DNA of 20,000 nucleotides from an uncultured virus (IMG/VR IMGVR_UViG_3300005526_000009) (IMGVR_UViG_3300005526_000009); one strand, 5' to 3'. Positions 1 to 16,677 are shown, numbered from the stretch's first letter. Made by a program: numbers and translations. Notes: a model not told the origin generated them from the sequence alone.

Positions 1-330
1 TATGAGTGCAAGAATGCTGACTATTTCAAGAACGCATCCTTTGAGGAATTGCAGTTGGGGCGTGAAAAGAGATACACATCAAGCAGGATAAACAACCTGA
101 ACAAGTTGCGCAGGGAGATAAACAGTGATGATGTTGTTGCGGAAACTCCCGTTACCAAACAGACACCTGTTCCCACAACACAGTTCGCAACAATCCCTAA
201 AAGACCCCAAACAGATAATACGGCCAATGCCGCAACAGTATCTAACAATGACAAATCCGAAAAGGAAAACGAAGATGTCACAATTCCAGCACATGTTAAA
301 GACCTCCCTGTGTCGAAGAAATCTAAGTAA
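1..330 (+). CDS. Hypothetical protein, 5'-truncated by the window edge, with low-complexity T/P/K/N-rich C-terminal tail
   Basis: Frame of ORF 49..330 is open from base 1 (YECKNADYFKNASFEELQLG...). TAA at 328-330 is followed by T-runs. Confidence 0.7.
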   Translation, partial: YECKNADYFKNASFEELQLGREKRYTSSRINNLNKLRREINSDDVVAETPVTKQTPVPTTQFATIPKRPQTDNTANAATVSNNDKSEKENEDVTIPAHVKDLPVSKKSK

Positions 331-808
331 CATCATCTTTTTTTCCGTTGTCTTTTTTTGCTGTGTGGCATTGATGTCCCATTTGGTCTATGCGATAGTG
401 GATTCTGAATCAAGTATAGAGAAGACATCATCCCCCTACAAGCCAGACACCATTATCACATACCTTTTGGAAAACCCAATTTCCTCAACCATTATCACAA
501 CATTAATTATCACAGTGTCAGCATACACCCTAAACAAAGGTAAGCAGATGAACCAGACATTGCGGGACATACCAATGCTCAAGCAGAATCAGGAAGAGAT
601 GAAGGTGGACCTGAAGGACAATGCTGACCAGATTAAGAAGCAGGTTGGCAATCTGGACAACAAAATGGACAAGCAGTTTGGTGAAATCATAAAGGAGCAG
701 CGCAGGATGGAGAATGACATATATAAGAGAATATATGACATATTGTTGTCCATGAAGGAGACACCTGAGACAACAGCTACCGGTAAGCGTAGGTATAAGG
801 GAGACTAA
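293..808 (+). CDS. Membrane-anchored coiled-coil protein, start uncertain (ATG 293 or ATG 374)
   Basis: From 293 there is a signal-peptide-like segment (RRNLSNIIFFSVVFFCCVALMSHLVYA), a hydrophobic helix (ISSTIITTLIITVSAYTL), then heptad-rich LKQNQEEMKVDLKDNADQIKKQVGNLDNKMDKQF. Confidence 0.65.
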   Translation: MLKTSLCRRNLSNIIFFSVVFFCCVALMSHLVYAIVDSESSIEKTSSPYKPDTIITYLLENPISSTIITTLIITVSAYTLNKGKQMNQTLRDIPMLKQNQEEMKVDLKDNADQIKKQVGNLDNKMDKQFGEIIKEQRRMENDIYKRIYDILLSMKETPETTATGKRRYKGD

Positions 809-852
809 GTTCTCTTCTTTTCCATATATTTTATAAATTCACAATCTTAATA

Positions 853-863
853 TTTGGTGCGGG
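853..863 (+). repeat. Dispersed 11-mer TTTGGTGCGGG (other copies at 7997, 9806, 10093)
   Basis: Four exact copies, all on the + strand; the 7997 and 9806 copies extend to 16 nt (TTTGGTGCGGGGTGTT). Confidence 0.7.
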
Positions 864-878
864 ATTACGCATCAATAT

Positions 879-1181
879 ATGGTATTTCTAATAACAACAG
901 ACACTCGCAGGCTGAAGAGTGACCTGGTGCAGATAACATTTGTGCTGTCATATAAGGATGCTGAGGTGTTTAAGAGACCTGTTAATGGCATAGGTGGTAT
1001 GCAGTCATTGTTGCGGGAACTACAGAAGCAGATGGAACAAAGAGATAATGACACGATGCTGATGTTGTCCAAAGACCAAATAAAAAGAATCAAACAATAC
1101 GCAACAAAATACGGTGAGTCAGGCGGGTTCCAGCAAAGGTTCCAGGGTATACTGAATTCATTAGAGGAACTGAGGATATGA
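879..1181 (+). CDS. Small hypothetical protein with internal GGxQ repeat
   Basis: 100 aa; GIGGMQSLL and ESGGFQQRF. AT-rich CTTAATAT about 26-33 nt upstream. ATGA overlap with next gene. Confidence 0.8.
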   Translation: MVFLITTDTRRLKSDLVQITFVLSYKDAEVFKRPVNGIGGMQSLLRELQKQMEQRDNDTMLMLSKDQIKRIKQYATKYGESGGFQQRFQGILNSLEELRI

Positions 1182-3665: not shown

Positions 3666-4157
3666 CTAAGCTCTCGGCTGTAGTAACTGAACGATAACAT
3701 TATCGTTTAATGCGGCGTTAGTGTATGCGTTTGCGATGTTGTCCTTCCAGAACTCAGATGCCTTGCAGATGAATTTACCAACTAGCTTATCGGTTCCTGC
3801 ATCGGTTCCGGCTGTGGCTGCGGTTTCAACAGAGCCTGCTACTGTAGTTGAGAATATCACATCATCACCTGGTATGATTGCACCTGAGCTTTTTAGTGTT
3901 ACCCAAACTTCAGTTCCATGGCCAAAGATTACCTCTCGTTGGCCATCATATGTTCCGTTTAGGTTAGAGAGAACTACCATGCCAAAGTATTTGCTTGTTG
4001 CTGATGTTGCGGGAAGTTTGAAGTATCCATTGGTTCTGTCCCAAACCACTAAGTTACCTGCTATCTGATTTTCCCCTGATTTGGTTTTTACCATCTCAGT
4101 AGGATGGCCTAAAGGCTTAACAATTGTCCCTAGGCTTGTTTTAAATGTTCCAACCAT
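3666..4157 (-). CDS. Capsid decoration/cement (beta-tulip-like) protein
   Basis: 163 aa, G/A/T-rich; IAGNLVVWD, YFGMVV, VWVTL...IIPGDDVIFS, LVGKF. Sits between scaffold and MCP. Confidence 0.7.
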   Translation of the reverse strand: MVGTFKTSLGTIVKPLGHPTEMVKTKSGENQIAGNLVVWDRTNGYFKLPATSATSKYFGMVVLSNLNGTYDGQREVIFGHGTEVWVTLKSSGAIIPGDDVIFSTTVAGSVETAATAGTDAGTDKLVGKFICKASEFWKDNIANAYTNAALNDNVIVQLLQPRA

Positions 4158-7732: not shown

Positions 7733-7925
7733 TGTTATCATCAAACAACCTATAGAATATTAATGCCGTATAAACAACTCTTACCTGGTTTACATATTCC
7801 TGTTCCATATGTGAACTGTAGGCCACAGATATTATTTCAAGTGGTTGTTCAAGGAAGGAATTGATGCGGCTTGTTAGTATATTGGGGTCAGTGGCTGCTA
7901 CGTGAACGCACCTTATGTTACTCAT
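7725..7925 (-). CDS. Small protein resembling Cse60/DUF2758 family
   Basis: Pattern L...INSFLE...IISVAYS...YTALIFY matches my recollection of that family; not verified. Confidence 0.55.
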   Translation of the reverse strand: MSNIRCVHVAATDPNILTSRINSFLEQPLEIISVAYSSHMEQEYVNQVRVVYTALIFYRLFDDNNE

Positions 7926-8997
7926 CGAGTTTCTCCCCTTCGGTGTCCTTTACTGCGAACCTTTTGGATACCAGTTTTAGTATTTTTCTGGGAATGTTTG
8001 GTGCGGGGTGTTCCTCAATTGAGCGTATGACAACTCCCTCACTCACCTGTTCTGGATAAATGACTGAGTTCCTTTCTGCAAGACCATATATAGATTCCCT
8101 GTCAAAGTTGCCTATGGTTAGGATGGGAACTATGGGGAGTTGCAGTTGCTCGGCAATTGTGCAGAACTGGTAAAAGTCAACATATTTTCCCAATTCAATT
8201 GATATGTCAAACAGCCTGAAATCAACACCACTCAAACCATAATCCAGGTTCTGGATGCCCTTTCCAAACAACTCAAACCTGAGAACAAGGTTCTCATACC
8301 CTGACTCCATCATCTTTTTCTCAATCTCATATTTGTCGAAGATATGGTAAAATGCGTTGGTCTGATTTGCGATATCCTCACTTGCCATGATGGCTGGCCT
8401 GTCCCTCTCAAAGCACACACGCCTGCTCATGACATAAATCTTGTCACCAATCTTGGTAAACGTTCCGTTCATACCATGGATTTTTTCCGTGACCACAACA
8501 GAGTCATCATGGGTGAATACATTTGCAAAGTCGGGTCTCTGTATTGACTCAATGTCATAGTATTCAATCCTTGGATCCGGCCAGTTCTTTTGCCTTGTGA
8601 ACTTGTCACCATTTGCCGACAGCCTTACCTCCGGTTTCCATTTGGTGATACCCAAGTCGTCAGCAACATTTGCATATTGTATATAGACCATAAAGCCATC
8701 CCTTGTCAGTTTCTCCCTCACATAACCATCAATAGGTAGGAACAGTCCCTGTGAGTATACACCAGATAGTTTCATTGTCTTTACCCTGTTTCTCTTTAGT
8801 TTGAGTTGATAGAAGTCAGTCATCTCTTGCGGCAATATTGAGTCAACAGCAATGAACAAACCGATGTCTCCCTTCTTGAATTGATCGTTGCGGACTATCA
8901 CATCATAACCACCGATAGTAACTATAGATATCCTATCCTTATTGGGAATTGGCTGGAGTTCAGGACATTCCATAAAAGATGCGTAGGCGTCTGTCAT
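7918..8997 (-). CDS. rnl: ATP-dependent RNA ligase, DRB0094/Rnl5 type (N-terminal OB domain)
   Basis: OB: PIPNKDRI, FKKGD, VDSILP, KLSGVYSQG. Ligase motifs: I TEKIHG (K172), Ia SRR, III FELFG, IIIa FRLFDI, IV EGVVIR, V ILKLVS. Confidence 0.92.
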   Translation of the reverse strand: MTDAYASFMECPELQPIPNKDRISIVTIGGYDVIVRNDQFKKGDIGLFIAVDSILPQEMTDFYQLKLKRNRVKTMKLSGVYSQGLFLPIDGYVREKLTRDGFMVYIQYANVADDLGITKWKPEVRLSANGDKFTRQKNWPDPRIEYYDIESIQRPDFANVFTHDDSVVVTEKIHGMNGTFTKIGDKIYVMSRRVCFERDRPAIMASEDIANQTNAFYHIFDKYEIEKKMMESGYENLVLRFELFGKGIQNLDYGLSGVDFRLFDISIELGKYVDFYQFCTIAEQLQLPIVPILTIGNFDRESIYGLAERNSVIYPEQVSEGVVIRSIEEHPAPNIPRKILKLVSKRFAVKDTEGEKLDE

Positions 8998-9854: not shown

Positions 9855-12800
9855 CTATCCCAAAGTTGATCCTGCCCTCGGTTTCAGGGTAAATGGCAGT
9901 AATACTTCGTCCCTGCCAATGTTGGAGATGGTATAGCGATTGGAGTATAGGTTGTCGGCCATTGTGAGTGTTATCTCCTTTGAGTATATCCTGAGTTCTG
10001 ACATGACACACTCAAAGTGGCCTGAAAACCTGTTCTTTCCCACTGCTATTGCCAAGTCCTTTATTGCTGTTGGTGTTGCGTCTGGTGGCAGGTTTGGTGC
10101 GGGAGTGTAGGTATAGCCGCCGACATAAACGGTTGCAACCATGTCATATGCCTGCTCAGCGTCATTGTAGTTTAGCTCATTAAACTTCCTGATAAATGAG
10201 TATGTCAGGTCATAACTACCCTGCTGCACGAGAACACCCACCCTGTTTGTTGTGTTGCCGCCAGAGAACTCAAAGCACAATTTGTCACCAACATCCATAA
10301 CATAGTCGTTGCTCAAATCCACAAACTCCACAGGCGTTGGTGCTGCGGGGTCTGTGCTTAGTGTGGATGTGAATACCGTTCCCAATGTTGCGATAAGTTG
10401 GTCATCTATTCCCCTTCTCACAGTGCAGTATGCTATGCCGGATGTTGCGGCAGTTGTCTTATACAAAAAAAGGATTACCCTTGTTATCTTCTTTCCTTTC
10501 AGTAATGATGACTGGTTCTCAATTGACTGTGCTATTCTGGAACGGGAGTTGACATCCAGATCACCACCAATGTAGATTGTTCCAGCCAGGTCCTTGTAAC
10601 CAATGTCGTATGTGCTGCCGTTGTCAACATAAAAGGCAATGGAGTTTTGTTGGTCAACAAAATCCCTACCCATGTTCAACTCCACAGTGTCGGTCAGTGT
10701 TCCACCCTCATATTTCAGGAACACCCTGTCACCATCTATCGTGTTGTAGCCTGACCCTGGGTTCTGGAATATGGTGTTGGCATATTCAGGGGTGCTGCTC
10801 AATGTTGTCACATCCACAGAACCAAGCAGCACCTTTGTGTTATAGTTCACATCCATGATGCCACAGGTCATTATCCCTGTTGGGTTGCCCACCTTCTTTG
10901 ATCTGGCTATTGCCTTTGTGATTCTGCGGTTCCACATTGAGGACTGTGCGTTGACTATCTTCTCACCTATTATTGTCTTGGTTGGTGTGAACCTCTCAAA
11001 CGCATCAAAGTTGTTGCCACCAGATGATATGCTTCCTGATATGTCCAGACCGGTCATTGGCAACCATCCGTCTGTTGCGTCCCTATAAATGAGATAGGAC
11101 TTGTTGGTGTCGAAATTGACATTGGAGCCTGTGTTGGTGAGGACGTATACCGATGATGGTCCTGTGTCCACACAGACAAGAACGATTCTGTCACCTGCAA
11201 CTATGGGTGTGTTGTAGTTGGTGTTGCTCCAGACATAGTTGAAGTCGGTTGGCTCCACTATTGGCAATGATGTTGCGGCAACTGACCTTAGCACGGAACG
11301 CACAACACCTGTTGATGATATGTGCTGCAACTGGACTGTGCCACCCGCAATGGCAGGGTCAACATACACCCTGAACTTTGCGCCTGTTGGTGAGATTCCA
11401 ATCATTGAACTGCCGGCATCAAACAACTCTCCAATGGCATCAAGGTCTATGGCAGTTGATCCCAAAATATAGTATGGGTCAATGTCCGGTGTGACATATT
11501 GATAGGTGAGAACGGTCTTTATCTCAAAAGCGTCATTGATGCCCCATGAGCCGTCAGCCTGCTTTCTGGACTTTTGGGTGATTGAACTGTCAAAGTTGAT
11601 GCCACGTCTTTGGACCTTGATGATGTCAGATGAAGCACCGGTGGAGTATTCTATTCCTATGGTAAATCCCATTCCCATTGCCACGGTGTTGCCTGTGTTG
11701 GTAAACGTGAATTCCTCATAATCATCGGGGTCCGCATTTGCGCTGTTGAACTGTCCCATTGTTGCGACAACATTGTTTGAGGCGTCCCATATCCTGCAAT
11801 ATCCTGTTCCTGTTGGTGAGGACTCTCCCTTTAGGTAGAACTTTGCTTCCTTTATCACCTTGCCGAACAGTTCCTGACCAATACCGGTTGTGTTGTCCTG
11901 AATCATGATACCGACAGCGGTGTTGTTTGTCCCACTCTTTTGCAGGACGTTGTAGCTGTTGTCTGTGGATGGAACCGTTACCGAACTACTGACAGGGTTG
12001 CCAGGCACTATGGAGCCTGCCGGAACACTGTAGCGTTCTGTTATGGGGTCAACCACACTGGTTCCATCTGTGCAGCCATACACTATGAAAAAGGGATTGT
12101 CACCACCGGCGGAGTTGATGTAGCGGTAGTCACTTGCTGTGGGAACAGGTGTTGTCAGTGGCTGTAGGTTATAGACAGTTGTGTATGGGACTGTGATTGG
12201 CAATGGGTCAGGATCCGGTTCTGGCTGTATGGATTCTGGGTTTGGAAAGTCTGGATTATGGTAGTTCTCATTCCACTCTTCCGTCCTATCGGTATCCGTT
12301 ATCTGTGTGGTATAGAAGCGGAACAGTGCTATCCTACCCTTTATGGATTTGAGTCTGTTGAGCAGTCTTATGTTGTCAGTGGAATTTGATATTGTGGTGG
12401 TCACTGGTGAGCTGACTACATTGGTGGAGTTGTTTACCGACAGCTTTATCCCCTCACCTGATTTCCATTTGAAGGACACAAAGTTCCAGGCAAACGGTGT
12501 GAGTATCACCGGTGATGTCACAGATATTACCGTGCCGGATGATGTTCGTATATTGGCCTTTAGCTGGGATGTGTTTGGTATGTGTTCCACCCAGAATGAG
12601 TTGTTTACGTTTATGCCCTTGGAGAACACTATGGCCGGATATGTGTATGGGTTTGTTGCTGCGGGGGTTTCTGGATCATAAAACATTGACATGGTGAATT
12701 CGGTCAGGGTGTTGGCTGCTGCAATTGCTGGAACCTGAACCTCAAACCCATCACCCGTTCCTGCGGTGTTGGAACCGAAATTATATAACTCATTGAAGTC

Positions 12801-13829
12801 AAACCAGCCATATGTTCCTGATATGACGGCATGGTTGTTGTTGCCGGAAGCGTCATTAATGTTGAAATTGAACACCGTGTTACTGAAGTGGTTCCACCTT
12901 CCATCCTGCATCGGGTATAGCAGTCTTGGTTTTGGCGTAAACGCTGCGGAGTCTGCTGCTATAGTTTCACCATTTGATATAACATATAGCCTATTGGTAG
13001 TGGGGTTGAAGTTGAACACCCAATCCTCCAGGCTCAAGTCAGGTGAGTTTGCCAATGCGCAGAGATATTGGTAACTGGTCTGGAAGTTATAGACATTAAA
13101 GTTCTGTGGGTTGAATGATCCCCTTTGCCTGTATAGCAAATCATTGAACAGCCATGCATATGCGTTCTTCACAAACACATGATACTGCACATAGTCCTTC
13201 CTCACATAGAAATACATGTGACCGTATGAGTTTATGGTGACGCAGTAGCCGTATCGCAACTGGTCATCATCTATCTTCTGCGCAACGGTTGTGATTGCTT
13301 CATGAACAGGCTTGCCCATGGAGATGGGTCTCATCCTGACATGCAGTGCAAAGTTCTTGTTGTTGTCAACAATTATGTTCTTGAACTGTATCAGTGGATT
13401 GTCCTCAGTGTATGCAAAGTGGGATATGCCATTGAAGTAGGAGAACATCTCATACTTTACCTCATTGTCGGAGTTGTGGTATATGAACAGGCCAGGCAGG
13501 TTGTATTCACCTGCGGAATAGCTGGTTGTTCCCATGTTTGAATAGTCATGGAGCTTACCTGCGTTCTGGAACTTTAACCACAGTCTGGTATCCACACCGT
13601 CTGGCTCGAATGTCGGGAAGTGGTTTGTTGCGAACTCTTCTGATATGTTAAACACAACCTGTGTTGAAAGGTCGGCAATCAGGGCAATGTTCTTTGTGTT
13701 GCTAATCTTTACGGGGGTTTGGTTTTCAGAGTCTATTATATCTGTTGACGACAGATCGGTGTTTACCTGTTTCTGTATCAATCCCCTAAGTAGTTTACCA
13801 ATCTCCTTACTGGACTGACCCACCAACAA
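9855..13829 (-). CDS. Large virion adhesin/tail-fibre-like protein: LamG/ConA-like domains plus four ~150-aa beta repeats (TTG/GTG start)
   Basis: LamG motifs INDASGNNNH, FTMSMFY, WNFVSFKW, LSVN, KGRIALFRFY and FECVMSELRIYSKEIT. Four repeats end EIKTVLTYQY, DISGSISSGG, DLAGTIYIGG, DMVATVYVGG. Confidence 0.8.
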   Translation of the reverse strand: MLVGQSSKEIGKLLRGLIQKQVNTDLSSTDIIDSENQTPVKISNTKNIALIADLSTQVVFNISEEFATNHFPTFEPDGVDTRLWLKFQNAGKLHDYSNMGTTSYSAGEYNLPGLFIYHNSDNEVKYEMFSYFNGISHFAYTEDNPLIQFKNIIVDNNKNFALHVRMRPISMGKPVHEAITTVAQKIDDDQLRYGYCVTINSYGHMYFYVRKDYVQYHVFVKNAYAWLFNDLLYRQRGSFNPQNFNVYNFQTSYQYLCALANSPDLSLEDWVFNFNPTTNRLYVISNGETIAADSAAFTPKPRLLYPMQDGRWNHFSNTVFNFNINDASGNNNHAVISGTYGWFDFNELYNFGSNTAGTGDGFEVQVPAIAAANTLTEFTMSMFYDPETPAATNPYTYPAIVFSKGINVNNSFWVEHIPNTSQLKANIRTSSGTVISVTSPVILTPFAWNFVSFKWKSGEGIKLSVNNSTNVVSSPVTTTISNSTDNIRLLNRLKSIKGRIALFRFYTTQITDTDRTEEWNENYHNPDFPNPESIQPEPDPDPLPITVPYTTVYNLQPLTTPVPTASDYRYINSAGGDNPFFIVYGCTDGTSVVDPITERYSVPAGSIVPGNPVSSSVTVPSTDNSYNVLQKSGTNNTAVGIMIQDNTTGIGQELFGKVIKEAKFYLKGESSPTGTGYCRIWDASNNVVATMGQFNSANADPDDYEEFTFTNTGNTVAMGMGFTIGIEYSTGASSDIIKVQRRGINFDSSITQKSRKQADGSWGINDAFEIKTVLTYQYVTPDIDPYYILGSTAIDLDAIGELFDAGSSMIGISPTGAKFRVYVDPAIAGGTVQLQHISSTGVVRSVLRSVAATSLPIVEPTDFNYVWSNTNYNTPIVAGDRIVLVCVDTGPSSVYVLTNTGSNVNFDTNKSYLIYRDATDGWLPMTGLDISGSISSGGNNFDAFERFTPTKTIIGEKIVNAQSSMWNRRITKAIARSKKVGNPTGIMTCGIMDVNYNTKVLLGSVDVTTLSSTPEYANTIFQNPGSGYNTIDGDRVFLKYEGGTLTDTVELNMGRDFVDQQNSIAFYVDNGSTYDIGYKDLAGTIYIGGDLDVNSRSRIAQSIENQSSLLKGKKITRVILFLYKTTAATSGIAYCTVRRGIDDQLIATLGTVFTSTLSTDPAAPTPVEFVDLSNDYVMDVGDKLCFEFSGGNTTNRVGVLVQQGSYDLTYSFIRKFNELNYNDAEQAYDMVATVYVGGYTYTPAPNLPPDATPTAIKDLAIAVGKNRFSGHFECVMSELRIYSKEITLTMADNLYSNRYTISNIGRDEVLLPFTLKPRAGSTLG

Positions 13830-13954: not shown

Positions 13955-14188
13955 ATGTTTGAAGATAATATGGAACAGATTGCCAAAATACTGTGTGATG
14001 AGATTACCAGACTTAAGGATGAAAACAAGCAACTAAAGGAACAGTTGAGGTTGGCAGAGTTAAAATCCGCCACCACTGTTACTGCCATATCAAATAGAAC
14101 CAGTAACAATTTCCGGGTATGCAATAGATGTAGTTCAATACCATGTCAATGTGACACATCATTCAGCTATACGTTGTCTAGCGGATAG
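13955..14188 (+). CDS. Small coiled-coil protein with CxxC-PCxC tail
   Basis: EITRLKDENKQLKEQLRLAE; VCNRCSSIPCQC. Fills the gap between two minus-strand genes. Confidence 0.65.
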   Translation: MFEDNMEQIAKILCDEITRLKDENKQLKEQLRLAELKSATTVTAISNRTSNNFRVCNRCSSIPCQCDTSFSYTLSSG

Positions 14189-15662
14189 TAATGCTAAATG
14201 TGTCACGCTGGACCTCCACTGCCACGGCTCCCTGTGTTGATGTCACCGAAGTTGGCAGATAGTATTCATAGAAGATGAACAGTAGGGTAGGTCCACGCTT
14301 TGATGTTCTCTGCACGGATTTCACCATCAGGTATCCGATTGATGATGTGTTGGTGAGACCGTTTGCGATTATGGTGTAGGCTTTAGGTGTTGATGGTGTG
14401 TGCAATGGACGCATACCCCCCGTTCCAATGTTTATGAACAGGTTGCCTGTTGCGCCAAAGTTCTTCTGTCCCGCAGCTATGACATATGCAGGCTGCTGTC
14501 CTGTGAAGAATGTTGTTGGCGAGTCTGTGGATGTCTCGTTGAACCCAAGGACATGGTGACGCTGATAGTTTCTTGTCTGTCCACACACAACAACATGGAC
14601 ACCATATTGCGTGAATATCTTGTGATAGGTTCTGCGAAGGGTATCATCTATTGTCAATGCGGTGTCGTTGGATGCGCCTGTCATGTAGAATGCCTTGTTG
14701 CAGACAACCATGATAAAGTCGACAGATGCGGTTGCCTTTGCGGTTGTCAACTGTGATATGATAAAGTCGTATTGTGGTGAGGGATTTGCAAATGGCTGGG
14801 TGACATCCATATATATGATATACAGGTTATTATGTTTCTCAAATGAGTATCCAAGTGACTTGGAGTTCTGTGCGGTGCTTAAGGATGTGACTATCTGGTT
14901 TTTCATTGTCGGGTTTGCGTTATCCAGTGGTCCAAACGCTATGGCTGCCCTGTCCTTTAATGAGCCAAGCATGTTTAGCCATGTGATTGCGTTGCCTGAT
15001 GTTGTGGTGTCACCTGTGAATATATATGAGTTAACACCCGTCCTCAACTTTAGCCTGGCAACGGTTGTTGCGAAGGGTTGCAGAGAATCCATCTCCCCCG
15101 TTATGGCAACTATGGTGTCTGTTGTTGGGGAAACATAATCTGGGTCAGGCAATGTGTTACCAAATTTCAACCGGAAGGAACATCCATCCACAGGGGCCTT
15201 GTCGGTGTTGAGGAATATTACTAGCTTAAGCCATATGGCAATTACCTGCGCAGGTGGTATATCAGTTCCCAGAATAATACCCTTGCTTGCATCACTTGCG
15301 TTGGTAAACCTGACACCATCCGGTGCGGTGGACTCGTTTATTATTGATTGCGCAACACCACTGCCAGTCCCATTGCCTATGCCAGCGGCAATGTCAAATC
15401 CTATATACAGTTCAGTGGTTGATGACACAGTGTTCTTTGGAATATATGCTATCGGATTGATTGCGGTTTCTGTAAGACTGGTGTTCTTTGCGTAGATACA
15501 TCTGTATTTTGTCTTGCCGGAGGAACGCTCCACACCGGAAACTATGTTGAAAACATTATGAAGGGCGAAGGGGGATACACTGTCTGAATGCATTGGACCA
15601 CCAAGACCGTCTGCCGTCAATCCAGACTTGAAGTATTTGATGTCTTTACCTGTAAAAACCAC
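14178..15662 (-). CDS. Phage structural-type N-terminal domain fused to degenerate metallophosphoesterase (purple-acid-phosphatase-like) domain
   Basis: N-terminal DIKY..SG, LGG, NVF, YRCIYAKN, NESTAPDGVRF, DIPP...AIWL. C-terminal MPE scaffold: GYSF, SPQYDFI, YHKIFTQYGVHVVVCGQTRNYQR, FINIGTGG. GTG start. Confidence 0.8.
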   Translation of the reverse strand: MVFTGKDIKYFKSGLTADGLGGPMHSDSVSPFALHNVFNIVSGVERSSGKTKYRCIYAKNTSLTETAINPIAYIPKNTVSSTTELYIGFDIAAGIGNGTGSGVAQSIINESTAPDGVRFTNASDASKGIILGTDIPPAQVIAIWLKLVIFLNTDKAPVDGCSFRLKFGNTLPDPDYVSPTTDTIVAITGEMDSLQPFATTVARLKLRTGVNSYIFTGDTTTSGNAITWLNMLGSLKDRAAIAFGPLDNANPTMKNQIVTSLSTAQNSKSLGYSFEKHNNLYIIYMDVTQPFANPSPQYDFIISQLTTAKATASVDFIMVVCNKAFYMTGASNDTALTIDDTLRRTYHKIFTQYGVHVVVCGQTRNYQRHHVLGFNETSTDSPTTFFTGQQPAYVIAAGQKNFGATGNLFINIGTGGMRPLHTPSTPKAYTIIANGLTNTSSIGYLMVKSVQRTSKRGPTLLFIFYEYYLPTSVTSTQGAVAVEVQRDTFSITIR

Positions 15663-16104: not shown

Positions 16105-16677
16105 TTATGCCTTTGGTTCTATCTCTTCAATATTAATATGGCTTAATAAAACATTCTCTGTATTGTCATTTATTTTGATTGCTATTTGGCATCCGTTTGG
16201 GTAATCCTCAACAAAATGTTCTGTGTCTTTATAACTAAACAATCTCATTTTATCACCATGTCTTATTTCATTGACCTCAAAATATGTTGCCTTTTCCTCC
16301 ATGTTATCAAGTTTAATAAACTCAAATGCTATAGATGAATTCTCAAGAGAATATCCTACAGTATCACCAACTCCTAGCGCATCTGTGTATTCTGGGTGCT
16401 GGTGTTCGTATCGAATCCTTGTTTGTCCGGTTTTGGTATCAAAACCAACATGAAAACACTTTACAATACTGTTTCCAGTATGTGGTGCTGCTGACCATCT
16501 CACATTTATTTCATTGTATGGTGCTAAAGAATCTGGTGAGTTTAGCCTAGCTTCAAACTTTACCACACTGCTTCTATATGCATTTGGTGTGTTTGTGTCA
16601 AAAACAAAGGTGGAATTTCGTATGGAGAAATTTGAGTTACTGTTACCGGTTAACTTGTATATATCTGCTAATTGCAT
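16105..16677 (-). CDS. Beta-rich single-domain protein, paralogue of 16726..17310 and of the C-terminal domain of 18191..19975
   Basis: NEINVRWSAAPH, VKCFHVGF, RIRYEHQHPEYTD, YPNG. Confidence 0.85.
   Translation of the reverse strand: MQLADIYKLTGNSNSNFSIRNSTFVFDTNTPNAYRSSVVKFEARLNSPDSLAPYNEINVRWSAAPHTGNSIVKCFHVGFDTKTGQTRIRYEHQHPEYTDALGVGDTVGYSLENSSIAFEFIKLDNMEEKATYFEVNEIRHGDKMRLFSYKDTEHFVEDYPNGCQIAIKINDNTENVLLSHINIEEIEPKA

Follow-up and report, generated by a model that had tools for sequence, protein, structure and literature searches.

It is well established that protein domains can be discontinuous in the chain and nested one within another. Among pilus tip adhesins, RrgA and GBS104 of streptococci have non-contiguous domains called D1 and D2, whose halves fold back together, with D3 inserted between them (PMC7893114). 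In the 'evolved Dit' of siphophage baseplates, one or two carbohydrate-binding modules (CBMs) are carried in galectin-domain loops of a structural protein (PMC7291167). Here we describe a protein of 1324 amino acids (aa) encoded in a 20,000-nucleotide stretch of DNA from an uncultured virus (IMG/VR IMGVR_UViG_3300005526_000009), this whole stretch being referred to as the window. The protein is likely, in our view, to have a nested lectin-type architecture and to belong to an uncultured tailed phage, in which it would probably be virion-associated; it differs from the described systems in the depth and the regularity of its nesting.

We propose the following path for the chain. It would first make most of a base domain of the ConA/LamG type (LamG1, aa 81–294) and next a complete second LamG domain (LamG2, aa 295–525); it would then run outward, leaving one short strand each for repeats 4, 3, and 2 (aa 547–602), and fold at its turn into repeat 1 (D1, aa 612–776), the only contiguous repeat. 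On its return the chain would make up the bodies of repeats 2 to 4, ending at aa 1238, and each body would take up the strand that waited for it; aa 1257–1299 would finally close the base domain. As a result, both chain ends would lie at the base, the chain would cross twice between each neighbouring pair of domains, and D1 would be innermost.

With RrgA and GBS104, this arrangement shares outer domains made of N- and C-terminal halves that enclose the inner ones, with the chain ends at the base. RrgA has three levels of IgG-like/CnaB-type domains with a vWA tip and sortase anchoring; the window's protein, in contrast, would have five (LamG1 > D4 > D3 > D2 > D1), made of lectin-like jelly rolls in a viral context, with each outer jelly roll giving one short strand to the outbound path. 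Its relatives would reach six levels where a foreign domain is inserted (P0003, P0004, P0005, and P0007) and eight in P0017. No families of the RrgA type (vWA, CnaB/IgG-like) were found in the protein by Pfam (E ≤ 1), an LPXTG motif is absent (the C-terminus has LPFTL), and there is no sequence relation; the likeness to RrgA is one of design, not of family. With evolved Dit, the shared feature is the presence of inserts in a lectin-type domain of a phage protein; evolved Dit has one level of insertion on the Dit scaffold, whereas the inserts in the window's family would themselves be split and serially nested. At the sequence level, neither Pfam nor PHROGs detected a Dit family in the window's protein.

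Single elements of the protein have wider likenesses. LamG2 shares its fold with phage structural proteins carrying PF13385 (Laminin_G_3), and its neighbours in BFVD come from cyanophages and Streptomyces phages; these LamG-bearing neighbours have TM-scores of 0.09–0.17 normalised to the query, and it is therefore the domain type alone that is common. The fold neighbours of the repeat unit are the lectin-like domain of Clostridioides difficile Cwp84 (PF18560, 4ci7_A) and a jelly roll of PBCV-1 (8h2i); in both the domain is contiguous, and the likeness to the window's repeat is at the level of the fold only. The open-access papers that were searched for nested or discontinuous phage-fibre domains contain no description of this family (subscription journals lay outside the scope of the search).

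Structure prediction and proposed pairing of the split domains

A preliminary description, made from the sequence, had proposed that a first LamG-like domain stops at NRLYVISNG (aa 279–287) and is completed near the C-terminus (KDLAIAVG...ELRIYSKEIT...NLY, aa 1257–1295), and that four short segments, VPYTTVY with P548 (S4), NPFFIVY with P579 (S3), DPITERY with P595 (S2), and NPVSSSV with P612 (S1), are the first strands of four repeats, pairing with them in reverse order. When checked against the sequence, all the residue positions it quoted for motifs and prolines were correct, and P548, P595, and P612 proved to be invariant in a 15-sequence alignment of the window's protein and 14 homologues, which are 38–57% identical. 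The four repeats, each of ~140 aa, were not detected by self-BLAST of the protein; when profiles built from the 15-sequence alignment were compared by hhalign, all six pairs were homologous (probability 98.1–99.3%, E 9e-14 to 7.5e-21). A hidden Markov model (HMM) of the repeat body matched aa 642–776, 797–938, 952–1089, and 1097–1238, with Y-x-G-G ending the last three. The linkers before repeats 2–4 have just 7–20 aa, whereas ~30 aa of strands precede repeat 1.

An AlphaFold2 model was made for aa 82–1281, a range in which LamG1 has its first strand and the greater part of its closing strand but not the final helix. It was based on a 60-sequence alignment and gave a mean pLDDT of 88.2 and a pTM of 0.51. 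DSSP assigned strands to aa 550–554, 568–571, 580–586, 597–602, 612–619, 626–629, 636–643, 1259–1261, and 1273–1280, and a helix at aa 649–654 that opens the body of repeat 1. The short strands and those at the C-terminus were predicted with confidence (pLDDT of 10-residue blocks 72–91 overall, 72–90 in the strand ladder, and 81–91 at the C-terminus), which would be odd for isolated strands lying far in sequence from any domain body.

The topology was read from VIA structural alignments against 48,161 PDB chains, using the first and last aligned residues of the best 50 rows. With the window's model, 49 of these rows involved LamG2 (model 214–444, Z up to 21.0). Against 5hon_B, Z was 20.3 with 192 of 206 residues aligned, and the ConA-like rows had Z of 19–21 with 192–206 residues aligned; the model shows LamG2 as a complete predicted jelly roll of the ConA-like type, made from contiguous sequence. 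The one remaining row, 8h2i_bG, a PBCV-1 capsid jelly roll (146 residues aligned, Z 13.3), covered model 499..1008, that is, from aa 580, the start of PFFIVYG in S3, to aa 1089, where repeat 3 ends. Five of the 50 rows, all with two-domain chains, ended at model 1183–1184 (aa 1264–1265), and the C-terminal strand would therefore lie near the LamG pair and not at the far end of a string of domains. Foldseek searches against PDB and BFVD confirmed the ConA-like domains, giving no ranges. The many matches to HCN lectin-like domains (clostridial neurotoxins) are due to the ConA-like fold that LamG2 shares with them and have no bearing on toxicity.

Because LamG2 takes all the ConA-like matches in the window's model, P0030 was chosen for the second AlphaFold2 model. 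This natural relative of 1115 aa is 26% identical to the window's protein and has no LamG2, its domain map reading LamG1, strand region, four repeats, and C-terminus; the model had a pLDDT of 86.0 and a pTM of 0.45. Single domains of the ConA/LamG type made up 47 of its 50 best rows, starting at residues 58–141 and ending at 1075–1109, with only 142–218 residues aligned (Z 10.3–16.8). For example, 5hon_B (Z 16.3) was aligned with model 84..1088 over 191 of 206 residues, its own range of 642..845 being the whole domain; the CBM40 domain 6er4_A was aligned by 179 residues over 78..1089, and laminin G 1qu0_A by 142 residues over 134..1079 (Z 10.3). In this model the last strands of the LamG fold would so be supplied by the strand at 1065–1074 and mostly also by part of the helix at 1080–1089. 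The other three rows were of a jelly-roll or lectin-like domain that runs from 324/326, in the outermost short strand, to 1014/1017, at the G-G end of repeat 4; they were 8h2i_bG (Z 13.2), the Cwp84 lectin-like domain 4ci7_A (Z 11.7), and 9euf_0, a chain of the phi812 baseplate (Z 11.6), whose rmsd of 17.8 is poor.

In alignment A3, every element of P0030 has one counterpart in the window's protein. The short strands of P0030 at 327–331, 346–354, 366–371, and 383–388 correspond to aa 550–554 (S4), 576–585 (S3), 597–602 (S2), and 614–619 (S1), its GG at 1014–1015 corresponds to the GG at 1237–1238, and its C-terminal elements 1036–1039, 1065–1074, and 1080–1089 correspond to aa 1258–1261, 1273–1282, and 1288–1297; the two parts of LamG1 thus fall at aa 81–292 and 1258–1297. 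Therefore, the closure of LamG1 and the pairing of S4 with repeat 4 would carry over to the window's protein by homology. For S3 and repeat 3 the pairing comes directly from the window's model, S1 is contiguous with repeat 1, and S2 is assigned to repeat 2 by elimination alone, so that the reverse order put forward in the preliminary description stands for segments 1, 3, and 4 on these grounds and for segment 2 by exclusion of the others. The anatomy it had given was borne out: LamG1 is cut off after aa ~294 and is followed by a complete LamG2, four short strands, four repeats, and C-terminal closing strands, and only the last short segment (aa 612–643) is contiguous with a repeat body. Its suggestion that LamG1 is completed from N- to C-terminus gains support from the 47 P0030 rows together with the mapping of the elements, at the level of predicted structure.

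Pfam (to E ≤ 1), PHROGs, and NCBIfam gave no family for the window's own protein. PF13385 did not match its LamG2 at E ≤ 1 and passed in four of six homologues scanned (28.9–31.6 bits against a threshold of 27.6); LamG1 had no Pfam match, its LamG fold being taken from the P0030 model (Z up to 16.8). The likeness of aa 1273–1299 to the closing strand of LamG2 (aa 497–523) is weak (hhalign E 0.0014, probability 17%). The repeat unit had no Pfam match in the window's protein, and the repeat body of P0075 passed DUF7013 (PF22793; 28.1 bits against 27).

Length of the strand region and number of repeats

If every split repeat requires a strand of its own on the outbound path, a longer strand region is to be expected where there are more repeats. 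The length of this region was taken as the distance between the outer strand motif and the first repeat body, a measure that involves no structural model. Proteins with two repeats had 43, 49, and 57 aa (P0070, P0113, and P0096, respectively), those with four had 84, 85, and 90 aa (P0029, P0030, and the window's protein), and the region reached 108 aa with five repeats (P0020) and 154 aa with seven (P0017). This growth of ~21 aa per extra repeat is close to the spacing of the segments in the window's protein, which is 16–31 aa. When the region was anchored by HMM, all 30 four-repeat rows without foreign inserts fell at 82–101 aa. By eye, seven strand-like segments could be counted in P0017 and about five in P0020. 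An HMM of the region before the repeats was also run on relatives with two or three repeats; it matched S4-x-S3 in one of four only (P0096, 11.3 bits), too weak to use.

Variation and proposed growth within the family

The family of the 1324-aa protein is conserved. Fifteen proteins matched at E ≤ 0.001 in a word-indexed search (38–100% identity, mostly 99% query coverage). A phmmer scan with aa 82–1281 matched 160 at this threshold, of which 80 passed E ≤ 1e-10 and 45 passed E ≤ 1e-30. A metagenome scan found relatives at 12 loci, mostly short. No relative was found by tblastn in isolated phage genomes, and relatives were absent from the IMG/VR searches and from GTDB genomes; as judged from these sequence searches, the family is known from metagenomes only.

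The preliminary description had also proposed that the protein grew by insertion inside itself, and this gains support from the way in which the family varies: in the absence of LamG2 from some relatives, in repeat number (two, four, five, or seven, with the strand region scaling accordingly), in extra repeats mostly of D1 type, and in inserts at aa 644–648. The domain map lacks LamG2 in P0029, P0030, and P0056. In four of the 14 homologues, foreign sequence of 536 (P0003), 255 (P0004), 522 (P0005), and 512 residues (P0007) is inserted between the positions of window aa 644 and 648. Searches with HMMs of the repeats, the LamG domains, and the C-terminus (best E 0.022) showed that it does not consist of additional repeat copies. 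These inserts share a common domain of ~200 aa and contain others besides, the order being swapped between P0005 and P0007. No Pfam match was obtained for the common domain of the inserts (P0004 aa 648–907, and those of P0003, P0005, and P0007). For the P0004 insert, the nearest Atlas clusters were hypothetical proteins mostly labelled Nitrososphaerota (0.94), and there was a faint lead to a polysaccharide lyase (PF14099, 14% of one cluster, 0.90); both are leads only, which could hint at a host or at a glycan-cleaving tip.

To place the extra repeats, 53 repeat bodies, taken from 13 proteins, were used for a maximum-likelihood tree. Every first body fell in one clade (99/96), together with bodies b1–3 of P0017, b1–2 of P0020, and b1–3 of P0022. 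Five of the six extra repeats were thus of the innermost D1 type, and the sixth was D3-like (P0017 b5 or b6). This distribution is in line with growth chiefly at the innermost place, for which a single contiguous insertion would suffice; the D3-like repeat shows that innermost growth would not be the sole route.

Beyond the close relatives, the repeat body occurs as a contiguous unit in large surface proteins of bacterial type (P0065, P0075, P0085, P0090, and P0097), among fn3, CHB_HEX_C, Ig-like, and polysaccharide deacetylase domains, and the repeat unit is therefore not confined to viruses. In P0070, P0051, P0096, and P0113, which have two or three repeats, a different domain with a motif end like YEFEVYG or SEFDIYG replaces LamG2; by eye it is reminiscent of the discoidin/F5-8 type C domain, which we name as a candidate only. 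P0019 (624 aa, on a 107-kb contig, 52–59% identical) comprises LamG1, LamG2, and the strands to aa 612 and stops just after the strand ladder. The gene may be split or frameshifted here, or the assembly may be broken; if truly split, P0019 would be a natural two-piece form of the nested protein.

Weighing of the alternatives

Several observations weigh against the nested architecture or limit its reach. The end points of VIA alignments leave open which of the residues between them are aligned, and the pairings are read from these end points. In the window's own model only one of the 50 rows bears on the pairing of a strand with a repeat and none aligns LamG1 with the C-terminus, LamG2 taking the ConA-like matches, so that the closure of LamG1 is carried over from a protein only 26% identical. 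Both models came from overlapping alignments of 60–65 sequences, and their pTM of 0.45–0.51 makes the geometry between domains uncertain. The length rule is broken by P0022 (six repeats, 87 aa) and P0051 (three repeats, 44 aa), in which some repeats follow linkers of 39–41 aa instead of 7–20 aa; these proteins fit only if the repeats behind the long linkers carry their own first strands, in which case the two would mix nested and bead-like units, the 30-aa linker of P0022 being ambiguous. A single insertion at the tip leaves the D3-type extra repeat of P0017 unexplained. A homologue with a contiguous LamG1, which the preliminary description had named as a check, was sought among shorter relatives and not found, the six short relatives all being fragment-like and none having an uninterrupted LamG1. 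Finally, the neighbouring genes are mostly unannotated, and presence in the virion and binding are inferred.

The alternative that survives best, though we think it unlikely, accepts the nested topology and attributes its origin to something other than serial insertion of whole domains, such as separate duplications, recombination between paralogues, or strand exchange in an ancestral tandem array. The extra D3-type body stands in the middle of the series in P0017 (b5, b6), the hhalign scores depart from the nesting order (127.6 for repeats 3 and 4 and 115.8 for repeats 1 and 4, against 89.6 for repeats 1 and 2), and all four repeat types are old, being orthologous across the family; these facts would suit such an origin. 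Serial insertion is favoured by the predominance of the innermost D1 type among the extra bodies and by the gain or loss of foreign domains and of LamG2 as single contiguous blocks at places where nesting fits. In addition, the inner block of a nested chain is contiguous, so that one event is enough.

Many phage fibres are trimers with exchanged strands. It might thus be argued that AlphaFold2, given a shallow alignment, forced the strands onto nearby sheets and that the real protein is an intertwined oligomeric fibre with strands passed between chains, an argument that draws on the 60–65 sequences per alignment and on the low pTM. We consider this improbable, since two models of proteins 26% identical gave the same layout of elements with a pLDDT of 86–88, and the scaling of the strand region with repeat number needs no model; moreover, even with pairing between chains, the strand that completes each repeat would be a distant one.

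Least probable of all, to a degree that we regard as slight, is a simple beads-on-a-string protein with all domains contiguous, in which residues 540–650 form a small beta domain and the C-terminal 70 residues an independent motif resembling a LamG closure: the failure of self-BLAST to find repeats and of Pfam to find LamG in the window's protein, the lack of detectable sequence likeness between LamG1 and LamG2 (hhalign E 0.52), the possibly self-contained repeats of P0022 and P0051 behind their 39–41-aa linkers, and the contiguity of the repeat in bacterial surface proteins can be cited for it, but 47 of the 50 P0030 matches need both chain ends for one ConA/LamG domain, the other three join the outer strand to repeat 4, in the window's model a join runs from aa 580 to where repeat 3 ends, the 7–20-aa linkers before repeats 2–4 compare with ~30 aa of strands before repeat 1, and the length of the strand region tracks the number of repeats.

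Limits of the domains

On the minus strand of the window, the protein can be divided as follows. The conserved N-terminal part (aa 1–80, 13590..13829), delimited by the 15-sequence alignment and the P0030 model, is helical at residues 5–33 and of low confidence beyond in that model, and is probably an anchor or a linker. The N-terminal four fifths of LamG1 (aa 81–294, 12948..13589; DSSP, P0030 mapping, and VIA ranges) has RLYVIS and ETIAA as its last strands and lacks closing strands in the DSSP assignment of the model. It is followed by the complete ConA-like jelly roll of LamG2 (aa 295–525, 12255..12947; VIA, PF13385 in homologues, and domain map) and by a proline-rich outbound linker recognised from the sequence (aa 526–546, 12192..12254). 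The short-strand ladder (aa 547–611, 11997..12191; DSSP, VIA ranges, and length scaling) comprises S4 at aa 547–554, an extra strand at aa 567–571, S3 at aa 578–586, and S2 at aa 595–602; from the models, S4, S3, and S2 are assigned as the putative first strands of repeats 4, 3, and 2, respectively.

Repeat 1, or D1 (aa 612–776, 11502..11996; hhalign, DSSP, repeat-body HMM, and Atlas lead), is the innermost lectin-like domain and the only contiguous one. Its loop from the third strand to the first helix (aa 644–648, QDNTT, 11886..11900) was located by the alignment. The nearest Atlas clusters to D1 are small hypothetical proteins of Uroviricota (0.95–0.96), and Lectin_like (PF18560) at 0.89 is a lead only, which agrees with the Cwp84 fold match. 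Three segments of linker plus repeat body follow, each with a GG end: repeat 2 (aa 777–938, 11016..11501; hhalign and repeat HMM), repeat 3 (aa 939–1089, 10563..11015; VIA and HMM), joined with S3 in the window's model, and repeat 4 (aa 1090–1238, 10116..10562; VIA), joined with S4 in the P0030 model. A second proline-rich segment, the return linker (aa 1239–1256, 10062..10115; sequence), leads to the closing strands of LamG1 and a short helix (DLAI, ECVMSELRIY, and LTMADNLYSN; aa 1257–1299, 9933..10061; pLDDT, VIA, and mapping), and the C-terminal tail (aa 1300–1324, 9858..9932), delimited by the sequence, is of low confidence in the P0030 model.

Genomic context

The ORF at 9855..13829 on the minus strand starts with TTG and encodes the 1324 residues plus a stop codon (P0001); the gene caller's version starts two residues later (P0002). 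It lies in a run of minus-strand genes that are almost all unannotated by Pfam and PHROGs. Some 0.9 kb downstream of the large gene there is an RNA ligase gene (7918–8997, minus strand; PF09414 with the PHA02142 OB-fold, phrog_968). Directly upstream is a 494-aa ORF (14178–15662, minus strand) with a sole match, to phrog_13135 (unknown function), at aa 17–149; a match of this ORF to purple acid phosphatase was not significant (E 0.16). Besides the RNA ligase, the only clues to the type of virus are two sub-threshold Pfam matches on the minus strand, one at 3666–4157 to the minor capsid protein gp53 of XM1 (19 bits, cut-off 27) and one at 16105–16677 to the C-terminal domain of T4 MotA (16.8 bits, cut-off 25).

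Discussion

The models and the comparison within the family together show, at the level of prediction, the nesting, the closure of LamG1, and the pairings of S3 with repeat 3 and of S4 with repeat 4. Beyond this, we suggest that the protein would form an extended stalk with D1 at its far tip and that it may bind glycans and act in adsorption to the host. Its two LamG domains and its repeats all have folds of lectin type, its BFVD neighbours are LamG-bearing structural, baseplate, or 'adhesin' phage proteins, with low TM-scores, and its role is most likely that of a glycan-binding virion appendage. The protein would then be attached through its conserved N-terminal 80 residues and would carry D1, or the cargo slot of D1, as an exchangeable far end.

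We put forward only tentatively, as a possibility that we hold somewhat less readily than its converse, the idea that this family is the deepest natural nested architecture described, that it is extensible, and that its innermost loop is a cargo slot exchanged between phages. The family would lengthen mostly by D1-type units at the innermost position: a complete lectin unit added inside the first loop region of the innermost unit, by a single contiguous insertion, would make one rung. The D1 loop at aa 644–648 would be the slot for foreign domains, in which unrelated binding or enzymatic domains could be exchanged.

If confirmed, the family would be a case of natural nesting five to eight levels deep; since the window's protein escapes Pfam entirely, it would also serve to test software that parses and annotates domains. 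The link between ladder length and repeat number would make the architecture readable from sequence alone. It might also offer a scaffold with a defined cargo slot for the display of binding domains. The usual description of host-recognition proteins in phages is of trimeric fibres or spikes with modules that follow one another along the chain. The design proposed here is another, in which the outward path of a single chain is a ladder of single strands and the return path leads through the domain bodies, so that the joints are double-tethered and the contiguous block at the tip could be duplicated or replaced in a single event. If true, this would be a distinct way to build and retarget a viral host-recognition organelle, unlike that of trimeric coiled or beta-helical fibres.

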